A DNA stretch of 64,000 bases from Eledone cirrhosa. Lineage: Eukaryota. This document shows, one piece after another, positions 36,685 through 58,468 of this stretch. Under the pieces are notes generated by a model. That model had not been told where the DNA came from. It did not search any database and was given only the letters and a program-made list of their open reading frames with translations. Each line of letters starts with the position of its first letter. Position 1 is the stretch's first letter. The position numbers were made by a program, and so were the translations under genes. Location: the NCBI GenBank assembly GCA_964016885.1, contig OZ024740.1:331824001-331888000 (forward strand). The letters run 5' to 3'.

Positions 36685-36733
36685 TAGGCTTTGATAAGTA
36701 CGAATCAGTACGAAACATACCTCTGTCAGCTTT
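36685..36733 (+). ncRNA. Type I hammerhead ribozyme, U3-A8 core variant
   Basis: taggct-TTGATAA-gtac gaatca gtac-GAAA-catacctctg-TC-agcttt, with the GUC site at 36727. Confidence 0.7.
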
Positions 36734-37005
36734 ATCTCCCCTGTTTGCTGAAAATTTAAAGTAAGTGAGACTGTCACTACTCTAAAACAATAGCATAAGG
36801 TCTTCGAAATGCTTTTAATTAAGCATACAGTGTATTGCAAAATACACTATATATACATTCATATATATATCGCTATTTCAGAGCGCCAATTCTAATTTTC
36901 AATTTCTGCTTGACCGGCAACCGCTCTGTATAATCAGTTCCTGATTATTACTAGAAATTCTATAATAATCAAACATTCATTGTTTTCAGCAAACAGGTGG
37001 AGTAC

Positions 37006-37054
37006 TTGGCTTTGATAAGTACGAATCAGTACGAAACATAGCACTGTCAGCTTT
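37006..37054 (+). ncRNA. Type I hammerhead ribozyme, U3-A8 core variant
   Basis: ttggct-TTGATAA-gtac gaatca gtac-GAAA-catagcactg-TC-agcttt, with the GUC site at 37048. Stem I is extended by ggag/ctcc and by ttttcagcaaacagg (36983-36997) / cctgtttgctgaaaa (37061-37075). Confidence 0.72.
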
Positions 37055-39179
37055 ATCTCCCCTGTTTGCTGAAAATTTAAAGTAAGTGAGACTGTCACTA
37101 CTCTAAAACAATAGCATAAGGTCTTCGAAATGCTTTTAATTAAGCTTACAGTGTATTGCAAAATACACTATATATATATATATATATATATATATATATA
37201 TGTGTGTGTGTGTGTGTGTGTGTGTATGTAGGAGGTGTGTTTTATTGTAGTACAATAAAGCAATGCAAATATCGGATAAGTAGCACTCTACAGTTTGTAG
37301 GACTGGAGTATAAATAATATAAAATCAAAAGATGGTTAAAAGAGTTCCAAGTATTTTATTATGCGCATTTCAAAAACAAATATCATCATGAGATGATATC
37401 TGCGTTTTCATCAGATAAAATAGGGATACATGATATGAAGGTTAAAAAACACTTGTGAATAGTGAAGTTTTAAATCAACATATGAAAAATAATTTAAGAT
37501 TGATGTGTGATATTGGGAAAAAGTGAGGCGGGGTTGGAAAGGGTGAGAAAGAGGAGGAGATGAGAGTAGAGAATGGTGGGGGAGGAGTATAAGAAGGAAG
37601 AATGAGAGGGGGGAGATAAGGGTGATAGAGAGCGAGAGATAGCCTTTACAACTGAGAAAAATATATATTGTCTCACGGAGAGAAGTTAAAAAGCCGTTGG
37701 AAGATAATAGATAATTTGAAAGAATTTGAAATTAAAAGTTGATGAAGAGAAAAAGGGTGTTTAGAATAATATTAGATTCAGGTTTGTATATTGAAGGGTT
37801 TAATAATATGTGCGAGGAAAAGAAATTGTTAATATGTATTATTGAAATAAAAATATTAATGTTATTAAGGATATACTGTGAAAAGAAGTAGAAGAGTGGA
37901 TGGGTTATGAATTTAGAGGAATTATTTAGTGTTTAAGTTTGTTTTTATGTAATGTAATATGTGTGCGTAATATATGTAAATAGTTTGTTTAAAAATGAGC
38001 GCAGAAAGCAAAGAAGACAATAATGATTAAGAAAGAAAAAAATCTAACATCAAAATATATATGTTTACGAAATGTTTTCTAATGGTAATAATATAATATA
38101 ATAAAGGAGATTAGTTAGGGTTTGTTTTTATGTATTGTAATATGTAATATGTAAAAGTCAGACGAGCATGAAAGGAAGAAAAATATAAGGAACTAAGGAG
38201 GAAAAATCTAACGTCAAAAACAATGTTTATGTTTACGAAGGATTGTTAAAGGTAACACTATAATGTATTTAAAAGGTAATAATAATTAGCCGTCGAAACG
38301 GCTTGAGCTCAGCCGCCGAGGTCCTACTCGTTCCTATATATATATATATATATATATATATATATATATATATATATATATATATATATATATATATATA
38401 TATATATAGAGAGAGAGAGAGAGAGAGAGAGAGAGACATATATATGTATATGTATATATATATATATATATATATAGAGAGAGAGAGAGAGAGAGAGAGA
38501 ATTTAGTATATCTACTAACATATGCGTACAGATGTACGCACTCTAATGCTAGCAAATACATAAGTTATGTCATAGTACCTAGGTGGTTCAATGCAGGAGG
38601 ATGCAGAACAATAATATAAAAGACGTAATATATATATATATATATATATATATATATATATATATATATATATATATATATATATATATATATATATATA
38701 TATATATACACATATATATATATATATATATATATATATTTATGTATGTATATGGGATATCAAGTTATCGTTTTACGTAAACCAGTTAGTGGTTGTAGGT
38801 ACTCTGTATTATGGATAGTTTTAACGTACTGCGTTGTTTGATTCAACAAGTGATTTCCATAGTTGGGTAGCGAGTTCGCGAGAATTCCCGTGCAGGTTGT
38901 TCTTGGAATAATAGTAGTGAAAGAATGAAGAATAACATGGTTGACCGTACAAAAAGGGTTTTATTTATAGTATTGATTAGGTGAGTCTAAAGGCCGCTAA
39001 TCACTCGAAGTATATACAGTATGTGTCTCTGATCAAATCATCGGAATACTGGAGGGTTTAACATATGGTATATATATATATATATATATATATATATATA
39101 TATATATATATATATATATATATATATATATATATATATATATATATATATATATATATTTATATATATATATACCATT

Positions 39180-39375
39180 ACTAAGGTTTCTCTGCTTCGA
39201 GGTCCTGCCAATCACTCCTTTCAGACAGGTGACCAGCGCCATCAGTTCATTGAATTCTCCCGTTCTGATATGTGCGCCGGGCTTAATTACTTTTAATGCT
39301 GTCAGAATTTCATCAAAGAAGGATCTGTTTTCGGGCTCACTGTTTTTGGTATATCCTTGCACCATCCACAGAGGA
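39180..39375 (-). mobile_element. RTE LINE endonuclease fragment
   Basis: MVQGYTKNSEPENRSFFDEILTAL...GEFN, homologous to the endonuclease at 43128-43331. Confidence 0.65.
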
Positions 39376-55629: not shown

Positions 55630-57072
55630 GTCTACATCTTCAAACCTGTTCGACGTCTCCATGGGATCGTTTGACAGTGCTGACGTATGTGACTTGGTTG
55701 GAACTTTTTATCTTAGACATATTACGTGTTAGATTCCCAGACTTCCACACGGGAATATACCGTGACGATGGACTGACTTTATCGAGCCATAAAAGTGGTC
55801 ACCACATCGACCGGTTTAAAAAAAACTTAGCTTCTACCTTCAATGAGTTAGGTCTTAGGATAACAGTTTGCCACAAACCTCTCTAGCGTAGATTTCTTAG
55901 ACATTAATTTAGAACTTCGCACACACACCCACAGACCCTTCCATAAGCTAAACGAGAAACTTAATTACATTCACAAGGACTCATGCCATCCTCCCACTGT
56001 TTTTAGAAACTTCGTTAAGAATATCAGTACTAGAATCTCAAACTACTCCTCTAATAAGGCTATTTTTGACAGGGCAGCACCCTACTATAACACGGCGTTG
56101 GCTAACAGCGGCTTCTCACAACCTATCACTTACTCTCCCACTAGCAACAACACTATTAAGAAAAGTAAGGGCAACAATAGACAAACTATCTGGTTCTCTC
56201 CTCCTTTCTTACTCAACGTTAAAACCAATGTAGGAAAAATATTTCTAGCCCTCTTAGATAGACACTTCCCCATAGGTCATAAATACCGCTCCATTTTTAA
56301 CCGACACAAAGTTAAACTAGGATACTCCTGGCTAAGAACATGAAGGCCCACATCACCAGCAGCCCTAGGAGCAACAGCCCACCAGGGTGCTCTTGCCGTA
56401 AGCCTGAAGCTTACCCCCTTCAACAGCAATGCAACACACCAGCTGTAATCTATGAAGCTGTGGTCACTTACAAACGACCAAACGAACCACAGGAGGTCAA
56501 ATCCTATGTGGGCATGGCGGAGGGCCGATTCAAGGAACGTTTCCTCAACCACCAGTCTACCTTCAGATACCCGGACAGACGTTCATCCACGAAACTCGCG
56601 AGCCTCGTATGGTCCCTCAAGAACTCAAGTATAGACTAATCCATTCAATGGAAAGCCATCACTATGTTCAAGCCATACGCAAGGGGAAATCCGACGTGTG
56701 GCTTATGTATTGACGAACAAATAACTATTCTAAAGAGATTACGCAATAGTGATTGCCTAAACACGAGTGATGAATTTTTCACACGTTGTCCACACGTCCC
56801 CAAACACCTATTGCATAACCACGAGGCTCCGGACTGATTCTTTGTAATTTTATTTTCAACCTAAAAACTTTTCGGACTTTCGCAGTTATCTCCCTTTCAT
56901 CTCTCGCACGCAGTCTAGTATTGCCTGTGTAAAGGGACCGGGTTTCTGCGCATGCGCGTTCGTACGGTTGTCTTTCCTGTTCCTATAACCATGCCCATAC
57001 CGAGCTGAAGATCCGCTAAGGTGAAACAATTGTTCTCGGTATGGTGAACTAACTCTTGTGTAACTACTTCTA
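55630..57072 (+). mobile_element. 5'-truncated Penelope-like element (RT C-half, GIY-YIG, 3' pLTR), possibly Naiad-type
   Basis: MGSFDSADVCDLVG, GIYRDDGL, VDFLDINL, YIHKDSCHPP, IWFSPPF..NVKTNVGKIFL..DRHFP, CSCRKP..PL..C, VIYEA...YVGMAEGRFKERFLNH, CGLCIDE, RCPH. Several frameshifts. (TA)n lies at both ends. Confidence 0.92.
56995..57044 (+). ncRNA. Minimal type I hammerhead ribozyme in PLE 3' region
   Basis: ccataccgag-CTGAAGA-t cc gctaa gg t-GAAA-caattg-TT-ctcggtatgg. Stem I is a perfect 10 bp, stem III is the palindrome ACAATTGT, and the GUU site is at 57034. Confidence 0.82.
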
Positions 57073-58081
57073 TATATATATATATATATATATATATATA
57101 CATGACTAATACACAGACATGACACACGCACGCACATACACATATCTGTACAAATTCGGCCATTCGCATTGGTTGAAAGGCTTAGAGACATTTTTGTAAA
57201 TATTGTCGTCCAAAAAATAATTATTACCAAAGATTTTAAAAAATACATGAAAGCAGTATGCTGTCCATCAATCTGGTCAAATTATTTGAAAATGTTTGTC
57301 TAGTGCCCTACATTAATGGTGAAATAGGGATATAAGGAAACAGAAACTTGTTCCTAGTCGCACACTACTATATATAACCTAAAAGAGAGAAGTATCTTTG
57401 AATCTTGCCTCGTTATTAAATTTGTGTTTATATAATTGTAGATGGTGAATCTAGAAATCACCAAAAATATCATGTAGTCACGAAAACCAAGTAGAGATTT
57501 ACGTAGAATACTGATCCATTGTTTGGGTACAGCAGCAAATTCAATGATCGGCAAGCTATTTTCTTGTCCCAAAATGCGTCTCGTGAGTGCTTGCAAGTTA
57601 AAGGCATGAGAAAAGCATTGAGGCAAAGAGTTAGGGAGAGTAAAATGAACAGAAGCTAATGCATCATTTTCCATAAACTCATGTCAGAGGGTCATCCCCA
57701 GTTACATACTAAAAGTTTATCGAAAGACCTTGCCTGGTTGTCTTCGCCGATCTCAACAAGTATATAACCAATACCGACTAGTGAAGATGAAGATATGGCA
57801 GTTCAACTGATTCCAATGTCCAAGACATGGTGCTGAGTATGTATTTGCCCATATCCACAATAGGCCTGTCATAATTTCTTAAGGACGACGAATATATATA
57901 TATATATATATATATATAAATTAGGATTGGTGCTCTGAAATAGCGATGTATACATGAATGTATGTATAGTATATTTGGCAATATACTGTATGTTTAATTA
58001 AAAACATTTTGAAGACTTTGCGCTATTATTTTAAAGTAGTGACAATGTCACTTACTTCTTTTTTCAGCAAAGCAAGGGAGA

Positions 58082-58127
58082 TACGCTGACAGATCTGTTT
58101 CACACTGTTGGTGTTCATCAGAGCCTA
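58082..58127 (-). ncRNA. Type I hammerhead ribozyme, canonical core
   Basis: Minus strand: taggct-CTGATGA-acac caaca gtgt-GAAA-cagatctg-TC-agcgta. Confidence 0.85.
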
Positions 58128-58422
58128 GCACTCGCCGACCTTTGCCGAAAATTATAGAGGTTGGATTCTTATAGAATTCCAGTAATAATCAGGAACTAAT
58201 TATACAGAGTGATTGCCGGTCCAGCAAAAATTGAAAATTAGGATTGGTGCTCTCAAATAGCGATATATGAATGTATGTATAGTATATTTGGCAATATAAT
58301 GTATGTTTAATTAAAAACATTTTTGCTGGACCGGCAATCGCTCTGTATAATCAGTTCCTGATTATTACTGGAATTCTATAACAATCCAGCCTCTATAATT
58401 TTCGGCAAATGTCGGCGAGTGC

Positions 58423-58468
58423 TAGGCTCTGATGAACACCAACAGTGTGAAACAGATCTGTCAGCTTA
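58423..58468 (+). ncRNA. Type I hammerhead ribozyme, canonical core
   Basis: taggct-CTGATGA-acac caaca gtgt-GAAA-cagatctg-TC-agctta. Stem III is the palindrome ACAGATCTGT, and the GUC site is at 58462. Confidence 0.9.

Follow-up and report, generated by a model that had tools for sequence, protein, structure and literature searches.

In the active fold of the hammerhead ribozyme (HHR), C3 and G8 form a Watson-Crick pair (PMC3884650), and its natural replacement by U3-A8 was documented in several examples by Perreault et al. (2011; PMC3088659), who also state that U3-A8 ribozymes are active in vitro. About 1,300 matches with U3-A8 were later reported for the HHRs of Penelope elements in Schistosoma (Cervera 2014; PMC4209133). 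We analyzed a 64,000-nucleotide stretch of the Eledone cirrhosa genome (GCA_964016885.1, contig OZ024740.1, positions 331,824,001 to 331,888,000; hereafter the window), in which three U3-A8 and two C3-G8 hammerhead motifs were found. With good confidence, these five motifs are type I HHR motifs in a non-coding retrozyme repeat of about 321 bp, in which U3-A8 is likely a working form kept by selection on a few propagating source RNAs while individual copies decay neutrally. The change between C3-G8 and U3-A8 is well supported as real and as compensatory at the level of lineages.

The covariation is the same as that of Perreault et al. (2011), which comprises scattered examples without a genealogy. 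The HHRs of the Schistosoma Penelope-like element (PLE) Cercyon resemble the present family in the change from C3-G8 to U3-A8, in copy number, in Penelope context and in opposite-strand pairs (PMC4209133). The Cercyon HHRs, however, are described as minimal, lacking helix III and located in pseudo-long terminal repeats (pLTRs), whereas those studied here are canonical type I HHRs with helix III, located in short non-coding tandems that can be ordered in a subfamily tree. Metazoan retrozymes without long terminal repeats (non-LTR retrozymes; Cervera and de la Peña 2020, PMC7229834) are similar in their low-GC, non-coding tandems of 170-400 nt (350-390 bp in mussels), each unit with a type I HHR, in their thousands of copies and in a predicted strongly self-paired circle. 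Circular RNA was demonstrated for those retrozymes, whereas here it is predicted from sequence; the present family stands apart in having U3-A8 subfamilies and a palindromic helix III that is long (8-12 nt), and a search of that paper for the term 'U3A8' gave no match. Partial tandems, an inverted 5'-truncated copy, a 30-40-bp tail at one end and microsatellite targeting are likewise described for non-autonomous PLEs (PMC8557442), and a 2026 preprint argues that animal retrozymes are non-autonomous PLEs derived from PLE pLTRs (bioRxiv 10.64898/2026.07.22.740005).

Since U3-A8 cores were already known, their presence is no surprise in itself, and the novelty that the earlier note on this DNA had implied for them does not hold, natural forms having been reported in 2011 (PMC3088659) and 2014 (PMC4209133). 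The variant and the class of element are both familiar; a switch repeated within a resolved genealogy is a modest novelty. Our literature search, which covered few subscription papers and no supplements, turned up no account of this family or of a switch repeated within a single family.

A structure-aware scan for the core and three helices located U3-A8 type I motifs at 36623 (-), 36691 (+) and 37012 (+) and C3-G8 type I motifs at 58429 (+) and 58121 (-). The earlier note had likewise reported U3-A8 copies at 36-37 kb and C3-G8 copies at 58 kb, with both positions changed; the copy at 36623 lies just outside the start it gave. Their cores read YUGANRA, GAAA and NUH, helix I being open and the other two helices closed. 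The U3-A8 layout is TTGATAA, GTAC-loop-GTAC, GAA, ACA..TGT and C, and the C3-G8 copies have CTGATGA followed by helix II as ACAC-CAACA-GTGT. The 36-kb and 58-kb loci are homologous (80% identity across 389 nt), and the five motifs represent two insertion events only. That stems II and III had changed while keeping their pairing, as the earlier note proposed, was borne out for helix II, where two pairs are compensated (10.1-11.1 and 10.2-11.2), but not for helix III in the window: its three closing pairs (ACA/TGT) are the same in both groups, and its centre covaries only across subfamilies. The window U3-A8 copies depart from their subfamily majority by a loop-2 C>G in both plus-strand copies and by altered helix III centres. 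Two further scan matches (37455 and 59266) lack homology to the repeat and were treated as chance. A loose TTGATGA..GAAAC..GTA match from a lenient scan at 32752 (+) also lacks such homology and is probably due to chance.

Subfamily genealogy of the 3-8 pair

Trees were built without columns 3 and 8 and omitted copies under 200-260 nt. Five non-homologous pattern matches, two matches judged by eye to be chance, and one duplicate locus were dropped from the analysis. The subfamilies formed a ladder running from D (U3-A8) through B1/B2 (C3-G8), E (C3-G8; the 58-kb copies of the window) and F and F2 (C3-G8) to G (U3-A8) and then to H, A (the 36-kb copies of the window) and C, all U3-A8. On this ladder the 3-8 state needs two changes, each of them double. 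A single U3-A8 clade was rejected by the approximately unbiased test on 58 sampled rows (p-AU 5.9e-11; 1.8e-5 without HHR columns), a test made after the first tree had been seen; it was rejected likewise with 78 rows that included a sister family, O. The root given by family O falls at the node joining D, B and the rest, where the branching order is unsettled, which makes ancestral C3-G8 with two gains of U3-A8 the most parsimonious history, although the outgroup branch is long. C3-G8 is therefore likely the ancestral state, with U3-A8 arising by two transitions (C>U and G>A) both in D and in the ancestor of G, H, A and C. With the ladder fixed from the trees, changes at position 8 would coincide by chance with both branches on which position 3 changes with a probability of about 0.015. 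Divergence from the subfamily majority was 5.0-5.8% in D, B, E and F, 4.9% in G, 3.6% in A, 3.4% in C and 6.3% in H (7 copies).

The nine other core positions did not change between subfamilies, while N7 varies. Change rates were 0.75 per site in the HHR region, a value perhaps inflated by alignment slips, against 0.24 per site in the rest, and at the latter rate zero changes at nine positions has a p of 0.11. In 11 representatives (six C3-G8 and five U3-A8), 18 of 26 pairs changed on both sides and 94% of cells were paired; none of 500 shuffles reached the observed value, and slid controls gave at most three pairs. Helix II runs through the series ACGC/GCGT, ACAC/GTGT, ATAC/GTAT, GTAC/GTAC and GCAT/ATGC, and its change came before the 3-8 switch, as seen in F2. 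At its centre, helix III is fully or nearly palindromic, with a sequence that differs between subfamilies, which suggests that the RNAs may fold as dimers. Candidates for a loop 1-loop 2 contact, which may resemble that of Schistosoma, are a bulge of UAC/UGC type and a CAANNA loop, both of them recurrent across subfamilies.

Counts across the 3.0-Gb genome used exact matches to the fixed pattern GGCT[3]TGAN[8]A N13-14 GAAACA, with C or U at position 3 and G or A at position 8 (a purine at 3 or a pyrimidine at 8 falls outside the count), and all are lower bounds. The pattern gave 941 C3-G8, 1104 U3-A8, 27 U3-G8 and 35 C3-A8 matches, so that 2045 of the 2107 have a Watson-Crick paired 3-8 core; reversed-pattern controls matched nowhere in the genome. 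Single mismatches amount to 62 (2.9%), seven of which lie outside the family (five without homology and two by eye), compared with about 1047 expected if positions 3 and 8 were independent. Mismatched cores as common as paired ones, which the earlier note had said would count against it, were thus not found. Copy counts reflect the amplification of a few sources, however, and are therefore not independent evidence for selection. U3-A8 makes up roughly half of the main-pattern matches, so that CUGANGA descriptors undercount such families; the earlier note had rightly said that searches confined to CUGANGA would miss this form, a remark also made in PMC4209133. A variant helix I accounted for 398 further matches, with C3-G8 in 90 of the 100 listed.

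Family O is about 64% identical to the main family, distant and younger, and forms 310-312-bp tandems of up to seven units. It yielded at least 1911 HHR matches, of which 1906 have C3 and the remaining five are never U3-A8; C3-G8 was present in all 100 matches listed. It is likely the most recently active family. Many of its copies lie about 2% from the majority; one stretch with members of the family is C1:46945057-46946683. Its HHR has a minimal palindromic helix III, a GUA cleavage triplet and a U-U at the base of helix II.

Once inserted, single copies in the genome undergo neutral decay. Among 74 copies sampled without regard to their core, departures from the subfamily majority affected 31 of 760 sites (4.1%) at the 11 constrained core positions, compared with 467 of 10932 (4.3%) outside the HHR (p 0.93). 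Selection consequently acts only on source lineages, and subfamily amplification confounds both the mismatch-frequency test and column covariation computed from all copies. The earlier note had called the motifs selected functional variants rather than decayed ones. This was sustained for source lineages, with about 1000 copies per paired state, 2.9% mismatches and the double change on two branches, but not for individual copies. A copy-level Fisher test was dropped as evidence because copies are not independent. The commonest changes are C>T and G>A (4-5%, against about 1% for the reverse). Genome-wide, single mismatches were 1.2-3.4-fold below the prediction from flank rates (for C3>U, 18 against 38-45 expected), a deficit that flank divergence in source lineages or sequence context could explain. 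On the tree, 28 C3-A8 rows represent 24 changes and 19 U3-G8 rows represent 17. No amplified mismatch lineage was seen among the sampled clades. An amplified C3-A8 intermediate on the branch from F to G, suspected from two copies, was rejected: the four C3-A8 and one U3-G8 among 100 listed copies are at about the neutral rate.

In multi-copy insertions picked for a mismatch, 13 of 16 mismatches were not common to all copies. A third U3-G8 insertion of subfamily C type (L077) was left out of this scoring. Both copies carry the 3-8 mismatch at L067/L068 and L083 (subfamily C) and at L104/L105 (B1). A-to-I editing as the origin of U3-G8 templates was unsupported (shared A>G 41, T>C 26, p 0.18).

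The repeat unit and its insertion

Measured between predicted cleavage sites, the unit is 321 bp (36728-37048, +), with 34% GC and a longest ATG open reading frame (ORF) of 28 amino acids, which makes it non-coding. The predicted circular fold of this monomer has -79.6 kcal/mol (z -6.1), an energy that none of 100 shuffles reached, and a long extended helix I carries the HHR at its tip. At 36 kb, an inverted, 5'-truncated unit of subfamily A with a 3' tail of about 30 bp (36416..36675, -; U3 36623, A8 36618, predicted cleavage after C17 36587) is followed by a head-to-tail tandem of about 1.6 units of the same subfamily (36674..37190, +), which ends without a tail in a (TA)n array (37169-37201). 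The first plus-strand HHR (36687..36731; U3 36691, A8 36696, C17 36727; helix II GTAC/GTAC) has its extended helix I cut off at the inversion junction. The second (36984..37075, +; U3 37012, A8 37017, C17 37048) has a complete extended helix I and a fold z of -6.1, the hammerhead fold lying at -35.0 kcal/mol against -35.8 for the minimum free energy. At 58 kb, a subfamily E tandem of about 1.3 units with its tail beside (AT)n (57918..58323, -; C3 58121, G8 58116, C17 58088) adjoins an inverted E unit that ends after the HHR (58320..58486, +; C3 58429, G8 58434, C17 58462). The DNA of the window is rich in microsatellites.

A profile search gave 442 pieces, 284 of them across the HHR, in 197 merged loci. 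Among 202 clusters, 91 were inverted (minus units, then plus units), 39 were same-strand tandems, 65 were single and 7 were of other kinds, with spacing within tandems mostly 307-324 bp. (TA)n adjoined 201 of 256 3' ends, and a tail of about 30 bp was present at exactly one end in 56 of the 65 inverted insertions with both ends readable. Tandem units of 170-400 nt, each with a type I HHR, GC below 45%, lack of coding capacity and a self-paired monomer are the features of a non-LTR retrozyme; tandem and inverted insertions, a tail at one end and a microsatellite target are those of a non-autonomous PLE. By its sequence the repeat classifies as a non-LTR retrozyme with Penelope-like insertion marks, and the tail and (TA)n marks support mobilization of retrozymes by Penelope-like machinery.

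From these features we infer cleavage, a circular RNA and a helper enzyme. A tandem copy would be transcribed, and two HHRs, probably dimerized by way of their palindromic helix III, would cut out a monomer, which would circularize. A Penelope-like reverse transcriptase and endonuclease (RT/EN) acting in trans would then copy the circle into (TA)n, which would account for inserts that are tandem and inverted and bear a tail at one end. An HHR dimer model is described in PMC4209133. The contigs of runs X1, X4 and X5 held only collapsed repeat copies and were uninformative on cleavage or circles.

Explanations for the paired change

Paired double changes on two branches, together with covariation in every helix, argue for selection on source RNAs and not on inserted copies. 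A bolder version is offered tentatively, as something that may well prove wrong: the tertiary pair would have been replaced twice independently under selection at the RNA level, both times in the direction favored by mutation; U3-G8 templates would insert once without spreading; the ribozyme arm would turn over about three times as fast as the rest; and the helix III palindromes would favor dimers of like with like. Alternatively, a functional U3-A8 pair may have arisen once, the second lineage acquiring both changes from D through a short tract of conversion or template switching. Four of about 14 substitutions from F2 to G fall within an 11-nt stretch (-4, 3, 7 and 8) and make it identical to that of D, which is as old as G or older (5.6% against 4.9% divergence). 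Yet bases unlike those of D flank the stretch on both sides, so that a pair of crossovers some 12 nt apart or less would be needed; few mosaics occur (two weak cases in 283 copies), and positions -4 and 7 vary among the F lineages anyway. Given these rare mosaics and variable positions, conversion appears unlikely, though it retains some plausibility. Recombination clustered at the cleavage site was also considered, but no such cluster was present.

It is also conceivable that the ribozyme no longer matters and that master copies happened to fix two transitions of a common kind, which then hitchhiked to high copy number. The prevalence of C>T and G>A, the neutral decay of copies and the non-independence of counts all fit this, as does the insertion reaction of one PLE, which proceeded in vitro without need for HHR cleavage (PMC11167929). 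The coincidence of positions 3 and 8 on the same two branches, the constancy of the other nine core positions alongside covariation in all helices, and the lack of an amplified mismatch lineage among those sampled make such hitchhiking improbable. Still harder to credit is that individual genomic copies, including those of the window, are kept intact because they serve the host, for example by cleaving transcripts: the deficit of single mismatches would fit, but would also be expected from sequence context or if part of the flank divergence arose in source lineages, and the core of the 74 copies differed as often as the sequence outside it.

Several points, the in vitro insertion among them, weigh against selection for a working U3-A8 ribozyme. 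The 3-8 signal rests on two evolutionary events only. Three insertions carry the mismatch in both copies; mismatched RNA can therefore act as template for at least one insertion. The 11 representatives were chosen with paired cores, and the shuffle control ignores relatedness. At the base of helix II, D has an A-A mismatch, and B2 and O have a U-U; since amplified subfamilies tolerate these, selection on activity may be loose. At the gathering score, Rfam gave no match in the window; E-value mode gave only miRNA-hairpin matches from the inverted repeats and one weak match to Hammerhead_HH9, the best HHR model (18.2 bits against a gathering score of 52), with no HHR match at 58 kb. The gathering score is set by the library and does not define the HHR class, and the canonical C3-G8 copies fall short of it as well. 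Finally, the 197 merged loci, to which the search for a partner was confined, contained no autonomous PLE with monomer sequence, in which the family differs from described non-autonomous PLEs, and no RT/EN remnant attached to a monomer; PLE protein remnants were present at 13 loci, none abutting the monomer.

The family bears on the question of selection for activity in the hammerheads of animal retrozymes. Its ladder supplies natural before-and-after ribozymes for kinetics (F2 and G, B and D) and, should the bolder version above hold, a natural series with which the fitness valley could be measured in vitro.

Neighboring elements in the window

Pfam searches with seven ORF fragments of the window gave no matches, and the following assignments are putative, by likeness to known motifs. 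We take 55640-57050 (+) to be a 5'-truncated PLE with an RT remnant, a thumb (ORF piece 55864-56343) and a GIY-YIG-like part; it is a possible candidate for the helper family. These parts are followed by (TA)n and, before it, by a type I HHR motif unlike that of the repeat, with the core CTGAAGA at 57005, a helix III that is palindromic and a fold z of -2.6. A second fragment, 26589-27640 (-), with thumb and endonuclease-like ORF pieces, is presumably a PLE related to that at 55.6 kb, and an inverted copy of about 140 bp at 25600-25740 belongs to it. Broken ORF pieces at 19122-20893 (-), 58957-59334 (-) and 6035-6544 (-) are presumably remnants of non-LTR retrotransposons. Between microsatellites at 24900-25230 lies a small inverted-repeat element, probably of another non-autonomous Penelope-type family, with a minimal HHR-like motif (core 25041, CTGATGA) that has a bulged base before helix II, a two-base loop 3 and a fold no better than shuffles (z 0.0).

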